From Enterobacteria phage HK140, in sequence record NC_019710.1: a stretch of DNA of 40,710 nt, one strand, 5' to 3'. Positions 94-40,336 of the stretch are shown here, in pieces. The stretch's first letter is position 1. Each line of letters begins with the position of its first letter. Both the position numbers and the translations under genes were made by a program. Below the pieces are notes generated by a model. The model searched no databases. It was not told the DNA's origin and saw nothing but the letters and a program-made list of their open reading frames with translations.

Positions 94-579
94 ATGGCAG
101 ATAAACGAATCCGTTCCGACAGTTCGGCGGCAGCGGTTCAGGCCATGAAAAATGCAGCTGTGGACACCATCGATCCGCCGTCCCATGCAGGTTTGGAGAA
201 AAAAGCCGAACCATTCTGGCATGACAATATCAGATCGAAAGCTCTGGACAGCTGGACGCCTGCCGACCTTCTAGCCGCCGTAGAACTTGCTAATAATCAG
301 CTCTATATCACCGTTTTACGCAAGGATTTACGCAAAGAAGAGCGCATACGCGGGGAGGAGCGAGACGAAGGCCTTATAAAAGACCTCCGCAAGCAAATTG
401 TTGAGCTACAACGAACTATCCTGGCTCAGCGCCGCGACCTCCAGATCCACTCCCACGCAACCAACGGCGAAAGTCGCGACCAGAAGAAACGTAATCAGAA
501 CGATCGTGATGCACGGAATACCAAAAACGAGCATCAGGACCAGGACGATAACCTGATCGCCTTTCCCAAGCACGGATAA
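94..579 (+). CDS. Terminase small subunit (candidate)
   Basis: 161-aa ORF immediately upstream of the large terminase at the genome left end; RBS AAGGTG before the ATG; charged C-terminus. Confidence 0.55.
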   Translation: MADKRIRSDSSAAAVQAMKNAAVDTIDPPSHAGLEKKAEPFWHDNIRSKALDSWTPADLLAAVELANNQLYITVLRKDLRKEERIRGEERDEGLIKDLRKQIVELQRTILAQRRDLQIHSHATNGESRDQKKRNQNDRDARNTKNEHQDQDDNLIAFPKHG

Positions 580-26359: not shown

Positions 26360-26848
26360 TTATTTGATAAGAAGTGAAGGTTTCCCAACTTTGAGTTGAG
26401 CGCCGGGGATATTTATTCCTGCTTTTAGTTGGTGTTTGATTGCCAGTTTGTCGGCTTTAATTGTCGTTTCAAACTCAACGTATTCAGGAGGAAGGGCGCT
26501 TGAGTCGATGATTTCTACAATTTCTGACGGTTTGCGGATTGTTACCTGGTGAATACCTGCTCTAATCTTTTTCTTGCCAACCATTTCAAGCGATGAGGCT
26601 ATATATGCCATAATGCTGTCAATCTTATTTTGAATTACTGCTGCTCGTTCATTCAGTGACTTTGCCTCTTCCTTGAGGCGTTCAGCATAACCAGATTCAT
26701 TTTTAATAATGGCGAGAAGTTGTTCTATTTTATCGGTAAATTCTCCTTCCATGCCTTCTATTGTGTCAGCAATCATCTCTGGCTCTAAATCTGAATCCAT
26801 CAATTTTGCGTATTCATTGGCTATTTCATATAGTTTGCTCACTGGCAA
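26360..26848 (-). CDS. Gp157-family protein
   Basis: 162 aa adjacent to recT; resemblance to the siphovirus Gp157 family by sequence character and position (from memory). Confidence 0.55.
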   Translation of the reverse strand: MPVSKLYEIANEYAKLMDSDLEPEMIADTIEGMEGEFTDKIEQLLAIIKNESGYAERLKEEAKSLNERAAVIQNKIDSIMAYIASSLEMVGKKKIRAGIHQVTIRKPSEIVEIIDSSALPPEYVEFETTIKADKLAIKHQLKAGINIPGAQLKVGKPSLLIK

Positions 26849-27737
26849 CCTCCAGTTTCGCTTTGCATTCTATGTAAATGGCTTGTACGTTCTGCTGCAA
26901 TTTCATTCCAGCTGTCAGGCGATATGCTTCTGCAAAATATCGCTTCAAATCATCCATGTTTTCTGCCTGAGCCATTTCATCGCAAAGAAGTTGTGCTTTA
27001 TCCATTATTTCCTGCTGGCGTTTCCGTTCATCTTCGCGGATATCTTCCTCTGATTTGTGCGGCATAACTGGTTCAGTCCATACACCTTCTTCTTCGTTTA
27101 GTACGTGAATAGCACTATCAAGACGTGATGCCTTAGGCCAATACTTGCTTGCACGCTTTACGACCGTCTTTCGCGCCATCTCATTCCAGTGATTTACCCA
27201 TGGTCCTTTATCGCTGAATGCTGCCTTGCTTGTTTTCCTTACAGCCTCAATTTCAGCCAGACTCATCTCTTCCGTTAGATAATCACCTGCTGGCGTCTTA
27301 ACTGTGCAGTAAACGCCAACGATATCACCACGATCACCGAAGGCGTTGTATTTATGGGTTGGTGCTTTATCAAGCCCGTTTGACTCATAGGTATCGTTAG
27401 CATGAACAAGTTTTGCCTGACCCCATGAGATAACACCAGACTCCATTGCAATATGGAGCAATCCCATATAGCTGATATCAAGGCAAACCATGCCGTCGCG
27501 AGGAACCAGATAAGCCAGTTTGCTGGCAGGGTTTAAGGTGATGCCGATCGCAGCAACATTGATGATAGCGTTCTGTGCGCTGGTTGGATTTGCCAGTGCC
27601 GTTTTAGCCAGGTAATCGTTTTTCTGGAAATACTGAATTGCAAACTGGCTTTCCTTAGCCCATGTCACCGTCTGTTCAGTCAATGCTCCACAGAATAACT
27701 GCTCCTGCTGTTTAACGAATTCAACGATATTGCTCAT
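26826..27737 (-). CDS. recT: RecT-family single-strand annealing recombinase
   Basis: 303 aa with typical RecT/Bet-like sequence character; no adjacent exonuclease gene recognised. Confidence 0.8.
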   Translation of the reverse strand: MSNIVEFVKQQEQLFCGALTEQTVTWAKESQFAIQYFQKNDYLAKTALANPTSAQNAIINVAAIGITLNPASKLAYLVPRDGMVCLDISYMGLLHIAMESGVISWGQAKLVHANDTYESNGLDKAPTHKYNAFGDRGDIVGVYCTVKTPAGDYLTEEMSLAEIEAVRKTSKAAFSDKGPWVNHWNEMARKTVVKRASKYWPKASRLDSAIHVLNEEEGVWTEPVMPHKSEEDIREDERKRQQEIMDKAQLLCDEMAQAENMDDLKRYFAEAYRLTAGMKLQQNVQAIYIECKAKLEVASEQTI

Positions 27738-28937: not shown

Positions 28938-29519
28938 ATGAACAACTCATGGTGGCAGGAACTAATGCATTTTTTCCTGCAAGGAATGACACTTAAACAG
29001 TTGATTCATATGCTAATCATCCTGATCATATTGATTATTGTTATGCCGGTAAGCGTAAAAGAATGGATAAACCTGCATAATCCAGAAATCCTTCCTCATT
29101 ACTGGATGTATTACATCCTGTTGTTTTGCGTTAGCTATGTGCTTAACGGCGTTGTTAATTCCGCTTATCACGCTGTGACTGAAAGAATTGAGGTATTCGC
29201 TGCTCAGAAGCGCAAATCTAAAGAAGAAAAATATGTGCAAGATTTGTTTGATTCGTTAACTCTTGGAGAAAGAGCGTATTTGGCATTCGCTGTAGCCGCG
29301 AATAACCAGCTAAAGACAGAAAAGGGAAGCCCTGAAGCAATCTCATTGCTCGAAAAAGGGCTTCTTATTCGGATACCTTCTGCTACTGGATATCCTGAAA
29401 TCGACCGTTTTGTTATCCCGGAACGCTATAGAAATGAGTGCTACATTAGGTTTGCTGGGAAGAAAGACAGTCTTATGGATGAACTTATCGCTCAGGATAA
29501 GCATGGCAAAAACAAGTAA
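28938..29519 (+). CDS. Membrane protein, candidate SieB-like superinfection exclusion protein
   Basis: 193 aa; two N-terminal hydrophobic helices (LIHMLIILIILIIVMPVSV, YWMYYILLFCVSYVLNGVV) and a charged C-terminal domain; opposite strand to the surrounding early operon. Confidence 0.45.
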   Translation: MNNSWWQELMHFFLQGMTLKQLIHMLIILIILIIVMPVSVKEWINLHNPEILPHYWMYYILLFCVSYVLNGVVNSAYHAVTERIEVFAAQKRKSKEEKYVQDLFDSLTLGERAYLAFAVAANNQLKTEKGSPEAISLLEKGLLIRIPSATGYPEIDRFVIPERYRNECYIRFAGKKDSLMDELIAQDKHGKNK

Positions 29520-29807: not shown

Positions 29808-30118
29808 GTTGACCTCCGATGAAACAACTTTGGAATTGATAGTGATTGCAAAGTGGTTTCTGGCCCCTCGAATTGAGGGGCAGAAAGAGCATCTCGCCAC
29901 CTAATAGGTCGATGCTCGGATCGAGAGATTTAATTAACCTCGGTTTTGAAGTTATGCATTCACATAAATCCTCCTGTTGCATGTGCAGCATTGGCTGTGT
30001 TTGGCGGCTGCATTTCGCCTATGGAATTGACTTTGGCGGTGACGCGCCGGGTGCTTATCTTCCGGTTGCCGTCGTGCAGCTGCACTTCACGTCACCCCAA
30101 AGCCAACTACTCTTTGGT

Positions 30119-32202: not shown

Positions 32203-33102
32203 ATGACAAATACAGCAAAAATACTCAACTTCTGCAGAGGTAACTTTGCCAAACAGGAGCGTAATGTGGCAGATCTCGATGATGGTTACGCCAGACTATC
32301 AAATATGCTGCTTGAGGCTTATTCAGGCGCAGATCTGACCAAGCGACAGTTTAAAGTGCTGCTTGCCATTCTGCGTAAAACCTATGGGTGGAATAAACCA
32401 ATGGACAGAATCACCGATTCTCAACTTAGCGAGATTACAAAGTTACCCGTCAAACGGTGCAATGAAGCCAAGTTAGAACTCGTCAGAATGAATATTATCA
32501 AGCAGCAAGGCGGCATGTTTGGACCAAATAAAAACATCTCAGAATGGTGTATCCCTCAAAACGAGGGAAAATCCCCTAAAACGAGGGATAAAACATCCCT
32601 CAAATTGGGGGATTGCTATCCCTCAAAACAGGGGGACACAAAAGACACTAATACAAAAGAAAAAAGAAAAGATTATTCGTCAGAGAATTCTGGCGAATCC
32701 TCTGACCAGCCAGAAAACGATCTTTCTGTGGTTAAACCGGATGCTGCAATTCAGAGCGGCAGCAAGTGGGGAACAGCAGAAGACCTGACCGCCGCAGAGT
32801 GGATGTTTGACATGGTGAAGACTATCGCACCATCAGCCAGAAAACCGAATTTTGCTGGGTGGGCTAACGATATCCGCCTGATGCGTGAACGTGACGGACG
32901 TAACCATCGCGACATGTGTGTACTGTTCCGCTGGGCATGCCAGGACAACTTCTGGTCCGGTAACGTTCTTAGCCCGGCCAAACTCCGCGACAAGTGGACC
33001 CAGCTCGAAATCAACCGTAACAAGCAACAGGCAGTCGTGACAGCCAGCAAACCAAAACTCGACCTGACAAACACAGACTGGATTTACGGGGTGGATCTAT
33101 GA
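32203..33102 (+). CDS. O: Replication initiator O
   Basis: 299 aa from the ATG at 32203; appears near-identical to lambda O from memory (MTNTAKILNF...); contains the ori iterons. Confidence 0.9.
   Translation: MTNTAKILNFCRGNFAKQERNVADLDDGYARLSNMLLEAYSGADLTKRQFKVLLAILRKTYGWNKPMDRITDSQLSEITKLPVKRCNEAKLELVRMNIIKQQGGMFGPNKNISEWCIPQNEGKSPKTRDKTSLKLGDCYPSKQGDTKDTNTKEKRKDYSSENSGESSDQPENDLSVVKPDAAIQSGSKWGTAEDLTAAEWMFDMVKTIAPSARKPNFAGWANDIRLMRERDGRNHRDMCVLFRWACQDNFWSGNVLSPAKLRDKWTQLEINRNKQQAVVTASKPKLDLTNTDWIYGVDL
32552..32636. repeat. ori iterons (four copies of the TCCCTCAAAACGAGGGA-type repeat) with adjacent A/T-rich region
   Basis: Four related ~18-bp repeats at 32552, 32572, 32597 and 32619, followed by an A/T-rich stretch at 32641-32675, inside the O gene. 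Confidence 0.8.
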
Positions 33103-34087: not shown

Positions 34088-34160
34088 CCATCTACATTAC
34101 TGAGCTAATAACAGGCCTGCTGGTAATCGCAGGCCTTTTTATTTGGGGGAGAGGGAAGTC

Positions 34161-34601
34161 ATGAAAAAACTAACCTTTGAAATTCGATCTCCAGCACATC
34201 AGCAAAACGCTATTCACGCAGTACGGCAAATCCTTCCAGACCCAACCAAACCAATCGTAGTAACCATTCAGGAACGCAACCGCAGCTTAGACCAGAACCG
34301 AAAGCTTTGGGCTTGCCTTGGTGACGTCTCTCGTCAGGTTGAATGGCATGGTCGCTGGCTGGATGCAGAAAGCTGGAAGTGTGTGTTTACCGCAGCATTA
34401 AAGCAGCAGGATGTTGTTCCTAACCTTGCCGGGAATGGCTTTGTGGTAATAGGCCAGTCAACCAGCAGGATGTGTGTAAGCGAATTTGCGGAGCTATTAG
34501 AGCTTATACAGGCATTCGGTACAGAGCGTGGCGTTAAGTGGTCAGACGAAGCGCGACTGGCTCTGGAGTGGAAAGCGCGATGGGGAGATCGGGCTGCATG
34601 A
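34161..34601 (+). CDS. ninB: NinB (Orf-family recombination mediator)
   Basis: 146 aa from the ATG at 34161 (MKKLTFEIRSPAHQQNAIHA...), lambda NinB-like. Confidence 0.85.
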   Translation: MKKLTFEIRSPAHQQNAIHAVRQILPDPTKPIVVTIQERNRSLDQNRKLWACLGDVSRQVEWHGRWLDAESWKCVFTAALKQQDVVPNLAGNGFVVIGQSTSRMCVSEFAELLELIQAFGTERGVKWSDEARLALEWKARWGDRAA

Positions 34602-35125
34602 CTATCAAATCAAATACGCCAGCGCACGACAAGGACTGCTGGCAAACGCCGCTTTGGCTTTTTGATGCACTGGATATTGAGTTTGGATTCTGGCTGGATT
34701 CGGCAGCGAGCGACAAAAATGCTCTGTGTGCTCACTGGCTAACTGAGGCCGACGACGCGCTCAATTCTGAGTGGGTAAGCCACGGTGCAATCTGGAATAA
34801 CCCACCGTACAGCAATATCAGGCCGTGGGTGGAAAAAGCCGCTGAGCAGTGCATACAACAGCGACAGACGGTAGTGATGCTTGTGCCAGAGGATATGTCA
34901 GTCGGATGGTTCAGCAAGGCTCTGGAGAGTGTTGACGAAGTTCGTATTATCACTGATGGACGGATTAATTTTATCGAACCATCGACAGGGCTGGAGAAGA
35001 AGGGAAACAGCAAAGGTTCCATGCTGCTGATTTGGCGACCGTTCATCAGTCCTCGACGGATGTTTACTACCGTATCCAAAGCGGCATTGATGGCGATCGG
35101 GCAGGGCGTCAGGAGGGCGGCATGA
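34598..35125 (+). CDS. DNA N6-adenine methyltransferase (phage Dam type)
   Basis: 175 aa from the ATG at 34598 (ATGA overlap with ninB); NPPYS motif (the DPPY-type catalytic motif). Confidence 0.8.
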
Positions 35126-35304
35126 GGCGACAGCGACGAAGTTTCACCGACATCATCTGCGAAAACTGCAAATACCTTCCAACGAAACGCTCCAGAAATA
35201 AACGCAAGCCAATCCCGAAAGAATCTGACGTAAAAACCTTCAACTACACGGCTCACCTGTGGGATATCCGGTGGCTTAGAGAACGTGCGAGGAAAACAAG
35301 GTGA
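35122..35304 (+). CDS. ninE: NinE
   Basis: 60 aa ([20 protein letters not shown]...) from the internal ATG at 35122; ATGA overlap with the methyltransferase stop. Confidence 0.7.
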
Positions 35305-35471
35305 TTGACCCAAATCGAAGTTACGAACAACAAAGCGTCGAGCGGGCTTTAACGTGCGCTAACTGCGGTCAGAAGCTGCATGTGCTGGAAGTTCACGTGT
35401 GTGAGCACTGCTGCGCAGAACTGATGAGCGATCCGAATAGCTCAATGTACGAGGAAGAAGACGATGAATGA
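35301..35471 (+). CDS. ninF: NinF
   Basis: 56 aa from a GTG start ([38 protein letters not shown]...); below the ORF-track cutoff, translated by hand. Confidence 0.6.
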
Positions 35472-36186
35472 GTTAATAAATGGCAATGCCATCAAAATGA
35501 CAAGCATTGAAATCGCTGAGTTGGTGGGTAAGCGTCATGACAATGTGAAACGTACCATCGAAACGCTGGCTAAAAATGGTGTTATCCGGCTTCCTCAAAT
35601 TGAGGTTTCCGAAAGAATCAATAACTTAGGGTTCAATGTTCAGTACGAGCATTACGTCTTCGAAGGCGAACAAGGTAAGCGAGATAGTATTGTTGTTGTT
35701 GCCCAGTTGTCGCCAGAGTTCACCGCTCGCCTTGTTGACCGCTGGCGAGATCTTGAAGAAGCTGCGGTTAATATCCCCAAAACGCTACCGGAAGCGTTGC
35801 GCCTTGCTGCTGATCTTGCTGAGCAGAAAATGCAACTGGAAAACCAGCTTGCAATTGCCGCACCTAAAGTTGAGTTTGCCGATCGCGTTGGCGAGGCCAG
35901 CGGAATTTTGATTGGAAACTTTGCAAAGGTTGTCGGTATTGGTCCAAACAAACTGTTTGCGTGGATGCGCGATCACAAAATCCTTATTGCTTCAGGTTCC
36001 CGGCGCAATGTGCCAATGCAGGAATATATGGATCGCGGCTATTTCACAGTGAAAGAAACAGCGGTCAACACAAATCACGGAATACAGATATCGTTCACCA
36101 CAAAAATCACCGGGCGTGGTCAACAGTGGCTGACCAGAAAGCTGCTCGATAATGGAATGCTGAAAGTAACAGGGGAGGCTGCTTAA
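35464..36186 (+). CDS. Phage antirepressor (Rha-like N-terminus, KilA-C/ANT-like C-terminus)
   Basis: 240 aa; the N- and C-terminal regions resemble Rha and KilAC antirepressor domains by sequence character (from memory). Confidence 0.7.
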   Translation: MNELINGNAIKMTSIEIAELVGKRHDNVKRTIETLAKNGVIRLPQIEVSERINNLGFNVQYEHYVFEGEQGKRDSIVVVAQLSPEFTARLVDRWRDLEEAAVNIPKTLPEALRLAADLAEQKMQLENQLAIAAPKVEFADRVGEASGILIGNFAKVVGIGPNKLFAWMRDHKILIASGSRRNVPMQEYMDRGYFTVKETAVNTNHGIQISFTTKITGRGQQWLTRKLLDNGMLKVTGEAA

Positions 36187-36476
36187 TGGCTAATCTACGC
36201 AAAGAAGCACGCGGCAGAGAATGCCAGGTACGTATTTACGGCGTATGCAATGGTAATCCTGAAACTACAGTTCTGGCACATTACCGGATGGCTGGAATTT
36301 GCGGAACGGGAATGAAGCCTGACGACCTGATCGGCGCATGGGCTTGTAGCGCGTGTCACGATGAAATCGACCGACGCACCCATAATCTCGACAACAAAGA
36401 CGCCAAACTTTACCACCTCGAAGGCGTGATCAGGACGCAGGCGATACTGCTGAAGGAGGGGAAGATTAAGCCATGA
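36186..36476 (+). CDS. DUF1364 (YbcO-like) protein
   Basis: 96 aa; MANLRKEARGRECQVRIYGVCNGNPETTVLAHYR with Cys/His cluster, YbcO-like from memory. Confidence 0.6.
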   Translation: MANLRKEARGRECQVRIYGVCNGNPETTVLAHYRMAGICGTGMKPDDLIGAWACSACHDEIDRRTHNLDNKDAKLYHLEGVIRTQAILLKEGKIKP

Positions 36477-36835
36477 ACGAATATCAGTTTGTGCTTCCAT
36501 ACCCGCCGTCGGTGAACACCTACTGGCGAAGACGGGGAAGCCAATACTACATCAGCGCTAAAGGCCAGAAATACCGAAAAGATGTACAGCAAATAATCCG
36601 CCAACTCAAGTTAGACATTTTCACCAAATCACGACTCCGCATCAAAGTCATCGCAGACGTTCCAGACTCCCGCCGCCGCGACCTCGACAACATCCTGAAA
36701 GGTTTACTCGACTCCCTTATCCACGCCGGATTTGCGGAAGACGACGAGCAATTCGATGACATTCGTGTAATTCGTGGTGTGAAAGTACCAGGCGGAAGGC
36801 TTGGAATAAAAATCACCGAACTGGAGAACGCATGA
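36473..36835 (+). CDS. rusA: RusA Holliday junction resolvase
   Basis: 120 aa; LPYPPSVNTYWRRRG, DVPDSRRRDLDNILKGLLDSL and GGRLGIKITE align with E. coli RusA. Confidence 0.85.
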   Translation: MNEYQFVLPYPPSVNTYWRRRGSQYYISAKGQKYRKDVQQIIRQLKLDIFTKSRLRIKVIADVPDSRRRDLDNILKGLLDSLIHAGFAEDDEQFDDIRVIRGVKVPGGRLGIKITELENA

Positions 36836-39327: not shown

Positions 39328-39603
39328 ATGACTAAGCTTTATCACCGCATCTCAACTTTTCTCTCTGGTTGCTGGGCGTTTATCACGTCTATTTCGTTCG
39401 CCATCTTTAGTTTCGGCAGCACAGCGTGCTCGCTTAGTCGGGGTCTGTGGCGTGCTATTTCAGCACTAGCGCCGAAATTTTTACCTGAAAAGGCTGTTTG
39501 GCGAATTGTAGAGCGAATGTGTAGTGAGAGCGTTCGCGAGAAGATTAACGTATTTGGACGTCATCCTCGAAATACAGGCGCATTGTGCAGTCCGTTACTG
39601 TAG
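39328..39603 (+). CDS. Hypothetical membrane protein downstream of the lysis cassette
   Basis: 91 aa; strong RBS AGGAG 7 nt before the ATG; hydrophobic N-terminal half. Confidence 0.35.
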   Translation: MTKLYHRISTFLSGCWAFITSISFAIFSFGSTACSLSRGLWRAISALAPKFLPEKAVWRIVERMCSESVREKINVFGRHPRNTGALCSPLL

Positions 39604-39994
39604 TCATTACAAAGCCCATCTACGGGTGGGCTTGATAATGAAACCGGAATTTATTCTTGGCAACCAGTTACGGCAGTACCACGAAACAACCCAAGCCAGA
39701 AAGTGTGGAAATAACACTGGCAGCCACTGAAAGATAAACCTCCTGCCTTATGGCAAAAAAGATTCTTTGTGGTGGCGGACTGATGGAAAGACATCGGTTA
39801 TTGCAGAGACCATTCAATGAGTGGTCTCGACAATGGCTTATACCCTACACGGGATAACTTAACTGATATCCCTTTTAACGGATAAACGGAGCCAACAATG
39901 GCAGAGATTATTCCCATGACTGAAGAACAGAAATTCCAGTTAGAGATTTACAAACTGGTCATGAACCAGAACGCCGCCGTGCATGGAGACTGGC

Positions 39995-40336
39995 ATGAAC
40001 AAAGAGCTCCGCGTATATGGCAGCCGATGGGATAAGGCCCGTCTGCGTTTTCTCCAGCAGCACCCACTGTGTGTGATGTGCGAGCAGCAGGGGCGCATAA
40101 CACCAGCAACGGTGGTCGACCATATCGTGCCCCACAAACTGAAAGATGCGCTTAAGTCAGGTAACCCTCTGGCCATATCGAAAGCACAGCTCCTGTTCTG
40201 GAGTAAAGAGAACTGGCAGCCACTGTGCAAAGCGCATCATGACTCAACGAAACAGAGAATGGAGAAGAGCGGCGCGGTAATAGGTTGTGATGCCAACGGC
40301 TACCCGCTCGATCCTGCGTCTCACTGGAGCACGTAA
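39995..40336 (+). CDS. HNH endonuclease (terminase-associated type)
   Basis: 113 aa from the ATG at 39995 (RBS GGAGA); Cys pairs CVMC...C and CKAHHD with VDHIVPH, an HNH fold; located just before the genome right end. Confidence 0.8.
   Translation: MNKELRVYGSRWDKARLRFLQQHPLCVMCEQQGRITPATVVDHIVPHKLKDALKSGNPLAISKAQLLFWSKENWQPLCKAHHDSTKQRMEKSGAVIGCDANGYPLDPASHWST

Follow-up and report, generated by a model that had tools for sequence, protein, structure and literature searches.

The stretch of DNA analysed here (the window; 40,710 nucleotides (nt)) is the complete genome of an HK022/mEpX2-like lambdoid siphovirus with HK620-type immunity. Pfam assignments in its nin region, the interval between P and Q, give the gene order ninB, dam, ninE, ninF, roi, ybcO, rusA, ninH and Q, and the part from ninF through roi, ybcO, rusA and ninH to Q is arranged in the same way in HK022, HK542, mEp506 and mEpX2. 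At its start, roi shares 8 nt, including its ATG, with the 3′ end of ninF, and at its end the TAA stop runs into the ybcO ATG; roi is translationally coupled to ninF upstream and to ybcO downstream. A preliminary description of this DNA had placed a 240-residue gene between ninF and a DUF1364 gene in the delayed-early nin operon. The open reading frame (ORF) list and the Pfam searches confirm its coordinates and neighbours (Table 1), and the gene indeed belongs to the N-dependent pR operon, with ninF upstream and Q downstream.

Table 1 Features of the roi locus, related sites elsewhere in the window and the predicted sites of HK022 roi
Feature	Position	Strand	Basis or remark
GC-rich hairpin GCCCCTC-GAATT-GAGGGGC, just upstream of the N coding region	29863–29881	N on minus strand	
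Set of four origin iterons of lambda type within the O gene (ATCCCTCAAAACGAGGGAAA and variants); an A-rich stretch follows	32551–32637		
tR2-like terminator upstream of roi	34113–34136		
ninF, upstream neighbour of roi	35301–35471	+	Pfam NinF, E = 1.7e-12
roi CDS, 240 residues	35464–36186	+	ATG-initiated ORF; ORF list and sequence
Second perfect 13-bp palindrome, ATGGCAATGCCAT	35480–35492 (roi nt 17–29)	.	Sequence
Rha-type winged helix-turn-helix, residues 11–67	35494–35664	+	Pfam; AlphaFold2 model, pLDDT 85–91
Variable mosaic cassette, residues 22–64 (cassette A in the window)	35527–35655	+	Allele alignments
Recognition-helix codons (predicted), H25-D-N27-V-K-R30-T-I-E-T34-L	35536–35577	+	Model secondary structure
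Perfect 13-bp dyad CCTCAA-A-TTGAGG (CCTCAAATTGAGG), codons 44–48, proposed Roi operator	35593–35605 (gene nt 130–142)	.	Sequence
Perfect match to the IHF core consensus AATCAATAACTTA (WATCAANNNNTTR), 10 nt past the dyad	35616–35628	+	Consensus match
Long predicted α-helix joining the two domains, residues 108–145	35785–35898	+	AlphaFold2 model
ANT/KilAC domain, residues 126–228	35839–36147	+	Pfam; nearly invariant among E. coli alleles
ybcO (formerly DUF1364)	36186–36476	+	Pfam YbcO, E = 2.1e-44
rusA	36473–36835	+	Pfam RusA; ybcO and rusA module spans 36186–36835
HK022 roi, predicted dyad CCTGCATTGCAGC	HK022 gene nt 130–142		
HK022 roi, predicted IHF core AATCAATGATTTA	HK022 gene nt 153–165		

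The gene is almost certainly roi, a named delayed-early lambdoid gene that is already known and very common. It is 98% identical in nucleotide sequence to roi of HK620, CUS-3 and HK633, and its product is a full-length orthologue of HK022 Roi, the copy on which experiments have been done (212 of 241 residues identical, 88%; E = 1e-158). The annotations roi or 'DNA-binding protein Roi' are used in HK620, CUS-3, H-19B, Stx2-86, 933W, HK97 and HK022. The roi DNA of the window matches 218 phage records, 1110 of the 5426 complete E. coli genomes contain roi, and the Roi family comprises 7079 clusters at 50% identity. The gene singled out in the preliminary description is thus an ordinary one, roi being among the commonest accessory genes of lambdoid prophages, including those of Stx phages. 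Inside roi there is a weak terminator-like hairpin (35886–35902; CGTTGGCGAGGCCAGCG followed by GAATTTTGAT), and the number of terminator-like hairpins in the roi region is not above chance.

In lambda, ninF is directly followed by ninG, which the window lacks, and the gene had been proposed to replace the lambda ninG segment. This proposal does not hold. Many phages, among them H-19B, 933W, VT2-Sakai and Stx2-86, have roi followed by ninG, and ybcO and rusA occupy the ninG slot in the window; roi is therefore not a ninG substitute. Among 80 loci with the same roi allele, ybcO lies downstream in 70 and ninG in 8. The substitute for the NinG resolvase is the ybcO–rusA pair, and not roi. In Stx and related prophages, the place of ninF directly upstream of roi is taken by a separate ant-like gene (encoding ORF6N and P22_AR_C domains, or a P63C domain), which suggests that the junction between ninF and the resolvase gene is a hot spot for regulator-like insertions.

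Other features of the genome lie outside this junction. A gene for a Dam-type N6-adenine methyltransferase (34538–35125) takes the place of lambda ninC/ninD, and the ninI phosphatase gene is absent from the window. An HNH-motif ORF of 117 residues (39983–40336) is located beside the genome end (cos), as in HK97-like phages, and the window also contains sieB (28938–29519) and a RecT-family gene (26826–27737).

Domain architecture and mosaic alleles of Roi

A domain search of Roi returned two domains above the Pfam cut-offs, Phage_pRha (PF09669) at residues 12–99 (35.2 bits; cut-off, 29.9) and ANT/KilAC (PF03374) at residues 126–228 (113.5 bits; cut-off, 25.3), and the earlier assignment of the gene to a Rha/KilA-C type is thereby borne out. 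Roi also matches PHROG 63, 'anti-repressor Ant' (4e-99). It does not reach the stricter NCBIfam model TIGR02681 (17.9 bits versus 45.95), and Pfam gave no match to the P22-type Ant domains P22_AR_N and P22_AR_C (PF10547 and PF10548). We found no solved structure or complex for the Roi/Rha family. The AlphaFold2 model of Roi contains a strand, a helix (residues 14–21), the recognition helix (residues 25–38) and two wing strands (residues 45–52 and 58–67), and the long helix predicted between the two domains is a possible dimerization element.

Alignment of roi from nine phages revealed a mosaic of four cassettes at residues 22–64, two linker cassettes at residues ~96–130 and a single C-terminal domain, and three further cassettes are found among homologues. 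In the AlphaFold2 model, the variable cassette coincides with the recognition helix (residues 25–38) and the wing (residues 45–67) of the winged helix-turn-helix. In the KilAC half, 109–111 of 111 residues are kept across phages of different immunity.

An intragenic dyad that covaries with the recognition helix

Codons 44–48 of the window gene form a perfect 13-bp dyad (Table 1), which has no other perfect copy in the 40.7-kb window. The dyad lies ~16 nt past the recognition-helix codons, with helix codons and dyad ~50 nt apart, and the mosaic breakpoints fall immediately past it. Other cassettes carry palindromes with the same centre and other arms, such as CCTGCA-T-TGCAGG and CCCCCA-A-TGGGGG, and a Symbiopectobacterium gene that is 62% identical carries GCTCAA-A-TTGAGC. 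The dyad imposes amino-acid changes on the wing, which reads P-Q-I-E, P-A-L-Q or P-P-M-G. A second palindrome, near the start of roi (Table 1), has full symmetry in cassettes A, B and F and 5 of 6 pairs in most other E. coli alleles.

The dyad of the window gene is followed by a perfect match to the IHF core consensus. Perfect IHF matches number two in the window versus 1.85 expected, so that the count alone is not significant; HK022 roi has its IHF core at the same gene offset despite ~55% nucleotide identity around it. Cassettes A, B, C, E and F have the core, as do genes of the phiP27 type, and within the family it is limited to enterobacterial members (15 of 136). Roi of the 933W type and APSE-2 P42 have neither an IHF core nor a good dyad and retain the protein. 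In 933W roi (1501–2223 of its locus), the dyad is degraded to CCTTCAATGCAAA, where the residue-to-base code described below predicts CCTGCANTGCAGG, and the P42 gene of APSE-2 (1168–1914 of its locus) is without a good dyad. Judging from these sequences, this sub-lineage appears to have lost the cis element and kept the protein.

The dyad is a property of the family rather than of the window gene. Of 14 genes compared first, 12 show symmetry in at least 5 of 6 pairs at the same codons; in most of the 14, only 1–2% of the synonymous recodings that keep the peptide fixed are as symmetric. We then used a family sample of 186 loci of Rha-domain genes whose identity to four diverged representatives is 30–80%. 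Among the 143 unique genes, 71% have at least 5 of 6 symmetric pairs exactly where codons 44–48 map, compared with a background of 0.5%, and a perfect 6/6 dyad lies within 12 nt in 58% of them, compared with a background of 1%. Overall, about 90% of 152 diverged genes with a Rha domain have a dyad at the corresponding codons. It is present whatever the C-terminal domain, as in phiP27 L14, KpTDp1 and rha, and thus belongs to the Rha domain.

The symmetry extends beyond the 13-bp core. In the 186-locus sample it reaches ~14 pairs (29 bp), with flanks that are variable yet complementary: flank pairs 9–11 are complementary in 71–81% of genes versus a background of about 25%. This flank symmetry resembles a stem more than a sequence read by a protein, and a simple operator model does not explain it.

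The arms of the dyad covary. Across eight cassettes, 89.6% of cells are paired compared with 70.7% in shuffles (0 of 500), four of the six pairs have changed on both sides, and the covariation score is 0.43 versus 0.03–0.14 when the partner is slid. Furthermore, contingency tables for 136 genes link each of half-site bases 3, 4 and 5 to one residue of the recognition helix. Residue 27 goes with base 3, N with T (34/34), K with C (36/40), D with G (31/31) and S with A (28/28). For residue 30, R or Q is accompanied by C at base 4 (130/130) and V, I or T by G (5/6), and for residue 34, R is accompanied by C at base 5 (106/106) and any other residue by A (30/30). The mapping holds from one context to another: residues (27, 30, 34) correspond to bases 3–5 as (N,R,T) to TCA, (N,R,R) to TCC, (N,V,R) to TGC and (S,R,R) to ACC, and in further contexts as (S,R,N) to ACA, (K,Q,R) to CCC and (D,R,R) to GCC. 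The whole code fits 133 of the 136 genes, whereas none of 10,000 permutations exceeded 55; given the close physical linkage of helix and dyad, it is uncertain how many independent evolutionary events underlie this covariation, and, with the helix codons ~50 nt from the dyad, part of it could be co-inheritance of a few ancient cassettes.

Two further observations bear on how the code is maintained. Base 3 is the synonymous wobble base of Pro44, and it is set by residue 27 (CCT in 33/33, CCC in 40/40, CCG in 9/9 and CCA in 18/18 genes); selection at the protein level is therefore no explanation. In addition, the classes are not clades: when each of 120 distinct sequences was matched to its nearest neighbour, judged by the 55 residues past the dyad, 60 were matched to a different code class. 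Together with the breakpoints right past the dyad, this indicates that helix and dyad move as a module of ~80 nt. The three residues (i, i+3 and i+7) lie on one face of the helix and the three bases are consecutive, an arrangement suggesting that the recognition helix is placed in the major groove.

On balance, we lean slightly towards a general rule, in which Rha-family winged-helix proteins, including Roi, would carry their own operator in the codons at the start of the wing and read it by the three-residue code. The resulting ~80-nt module would be shuffled among phages, force changes in the wing that maintain the DNA symmetry and provide position-independent autoregulation of a gene without a promoter of its own. 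Searches of the accessible literature yielded no description of an intragenic operator with a three-residue code; the 1996 paper on HK022 may have mapped the site of one allele.

A predicted intragenic operator and its alternatives

The overall explanation that we favour, with a probability of roughly 0.6, combines an intragenic Roi operator, IHF, a limit on transcriptional read-through and a KilAC effector. Its central step, the binding of Roi to the intragenic dyad, is quite probable on the covariation described above. The Rha domain, probably as a dimer, would bind CCTCAA-A-TTGAGG inside its own coding sequence, with half-site bases 3, 4 and 5 read by residues 27, 30 and 34, which share a face of the recognition helix. 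IHF would occupy the neighbouring core, bend the adjoining DNA and stabilize the Roi complex. This operator and IHF reading fits a 1996 abstract in which Clerget and Boccard reportedly described the binding of HK022 Roi to a site within its own gene, beside an IHF site, and the stabilization of that binding by IHF. One geometric point speaks against the model: the half-site read-outs are only 6 bp apart, so that in B-DNA they would face opposite sides, an unusual arrangement for helix-turn-helix dimers.

The consequences of binding are more tentative. The complex might act through autoregulation or as a roadblock; given the position of the site, between ninF and Q in the pR transcript, a limit on read-through seems most plausible, and it would restrict the dosage of Roi and perhaps affect the timing of Q. 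Roi would then be a self-contained, position-independent autoregulated module, in which helix and operator are co-inherited during mosaic recombination, and the mechanism would account for helix and site staying within 50 nt of each other. The effector role would fall to the nearly invariant KilAC domain, with a target independent of immunity type, either a host function or DNA, and where IHF is missing, control would be lost and Roi or Rha would become harmful to the phage. We regard the autoregulatory and effector steps as possible rather than probable.

The preliminary description interpreted the gene as an antirepressor. In such a role, Roi would bind CI-type repressors through its KilAC domain and inactivate them in the way that P1 Ant1 inactivates C1, whether these repressors belong to the phage itself or to heteroimmune prophages in the same cell. 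The domains and the operon location given in that description stand; the proposed repressor inactivation and tuning of the lysis–lysogeny decision find no support in the comparisons below. Homology hints weakly at antirepression: PF03374 is named after the P1 antirepressor, PHROG 63 and RefSeq use the label 'anti-repressor', and the C-terminal half of Roi shares 66–69% nucleotide identity with the P1 KilA and Ant1 genes. Moreover, the separate ant gene directly upstream of roi in Stx phages, in the same operon, means that the nin region does host antirepressor-like genes. The label of roi, however, is one of homology alone and is not to be read as function. An antirepressor is expected to be expressible during prophage repression, and the P22 ant, P1 ant and Gifsy antirepressors have their own regulated promoters. 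By contrast, the start of roi overlaps ninF, we found no promoter-like site upstream of it, and the gene lies between a tR2-like terminator and Q, so that Roi would be made only after the phage's own repressor has been lost. An antirepressor would also be expected to have a specificity tied to the immunity type of the phage, and the Roi alleles do not follow this pattern. mEpX2, one of only 14 phage records that share the cI–cro of the window, has the same CI (238 of 239 residues identical) and a different Roi cassette; the roi allele of the window occurs in 35 phage records, of which only 4 share its cI; and the KilAC half hardly varies between phages that differ in immunity. In addition, sequence records annotate Roi as a DNA-binding protein, the dyad and the code point to DNA as the ligand of its variable part, and characterized KilAC proteins have other activities, the reported roles ranging over SOS inhibition, cell-division block, host killing and P1 antirepression. 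We therefore consider an antirepressor function unlikely, above all a cognate one; Roi might still act on heteroimmune prophages in the same cell.

Two other readings concern the dyad itself. It could be a nucleic-acid structure (a hairpin in mRNA or single-stranded DNA, or a cruciform) or the site of another factor, serving for example translation, mRNA stability or recombination at mosaic junctions. The run of symmetry into the variable flanks and the mosaic breakpoints that abut the dyad would suit such a role, as would the folding of the 33-nt stretch of the window at −9.8 kcal/mol (z = −2.9) and of that of cassette G at −19.5 kcal/mol (z = −4.3). However, RNA hairpin stability is not conserved (HK022, −2.9 kcal/mol, z = 0), structure alone leaves unexplained why three residues of one helix face, with codons ~50 nt upstream, predict the identity of bases 3–5, beyond their complementarity, in 133 of 136 genes and in different contexts, and the 1996 work reportedly has Roi binding within its own gene; we hold this reading to be quite unlikely. 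It is very unlikely that the main target of Roi lies elsewhere, for example at the replication origin, with the intragenic site secondary and Roi blocking phage DNA synthesis in IHF-deficient cells. In its favour, the cassette-A dyad and origin iteron 3 (32595–32614) have CCTCAAATTG in common, the phi80 record annotates rha with 'DNA synthesis inhibition in IHF- hosts', and the dyad motif has 7 matches in the window versus 1.7 expected. This excess is nevertheless due to the four origin iterons and to a boxB-like hairpin just upstream of N (Table 1), which is probably the nutL boxB and scores as a match with one mismatch, and the near-copies are mismatched at the code positions. In mEpX2, the iterons are unrelated (TTGTCCAACGG) and the dyad is found only in roi; the dyad type is thus not tied to the origin type, and the sharing of CCTCAAATTG is probably a coincidence. 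Finally, 87 loci, searched with flanks of only 400 nt, yielded no further copy of the cognate dyad, and the sole perfect copy in the genome is the one in roi.

With an intragenic operator as the preferred reading, the interest attaches to this predicted site and the residue-to-base code; the gene itself was known. If the code is true, the operator of each member would be predictable from three residues in a family of thousands that has no structure. The family is also a naturally occurring collection for studying how amino acids recognize bases; in it, the DNA constraint overrides the protein sequence, residue 27 dictating both the wobble base of the proline and the residue at position 47. The proposed arrangement suggests a route to self-regulation for promoter-less accessory genes in mosaic phage operons, and it offers a candidate cis element for the long-known, unexplained phenotype of Rha and Roi on IHF-deficient hosts. 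In Stx phages, the 933W-type allele without dyad and IHF core could bear on the timing of Q and of the toxin.

Comparison with known systems

HK022 Roi and the Roi of the window are of the same length to within one residue, are encoded at the same gene position and have an essentially identical C-terminal 180 residues, and the offset of the IHF core and the codons of the dyad match. They differ at residues 22–62, comprising the recognition helix and the wing, which come from another cassette: the window combines HDNVKRTIETL with CCTCAA-A-TTGAGG, whereas HK022 combines HSNVKVSIDRL with CCTGCA-T-TGCAGC. The two proteins are thus predicted to differ in DNA specificity. HK022 Roi is reported to inhibit lytic growth on IHF-deficient hosts (PMID 8763934; J Bacteriol 178:4077).

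The Rha proteins of phi80 and P22 (orf201), the founders of Pfam Phage_pRha, share the N-terminal fold family with Roi and, like Roi, have been reported to inhibit phage growth in IHF-deficient hosts. Both rha genes carry a dyad ~8–9 codons past the recognition helix, with a half-site that fits the Roi code. In phi80 rha (43739–44293), a perfect GCGCAA-TT-TTGCGC (GCGCAATTTTGCGC) accompanies a helix with D27, R30 and N34, and the half-site GCGCAA is the one that the code predicts; P22 rha (39575–40180) has a degenerate copy of the dyad, followed by a perfect IHF core at the same 10-nt spacing. Unlike roi, the two rha genes belong to late operons, lack KilAC and have a dyad spacing of 2 nt instead of 1 nt.

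With its combination of pRha and KilAC, Roi has the architecture of the AriS-like dual-function regulators, in which pRha is one of three N-terminal variants and the KilAC domain is reported to dampen the SOS response of the host; AriS itself is from a Listeria phage, a Firmicute phage, and has an AntA/AntB N terminus, so that its similarity to Roi is at the family level only (PMC9043618). P1 Ant1/Ant2 and P1 KilA have the KilAC domain in common with Roi (66–69% nucleotide identity) and differ in their N-terminal domains, Bro-N and KilA-N. Moreover, P1 Ant is encoded in an immunity-controlled operon and acts on the C1 repressor, whereas Roi has no link to immunity.

The linkage of a binding site to the gene of its own protein has precedents in ParB/Spo0J, with parS inside spo0J, and in the lambdoid cI–operator–cro cassettes. 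As proposed for roi, the site in these systems is physically linked to the protein gene and co-varies with it between alleles; in roi, unlike in either of them, the predicted site is part of the very codons that specify the DNA-binding domain.
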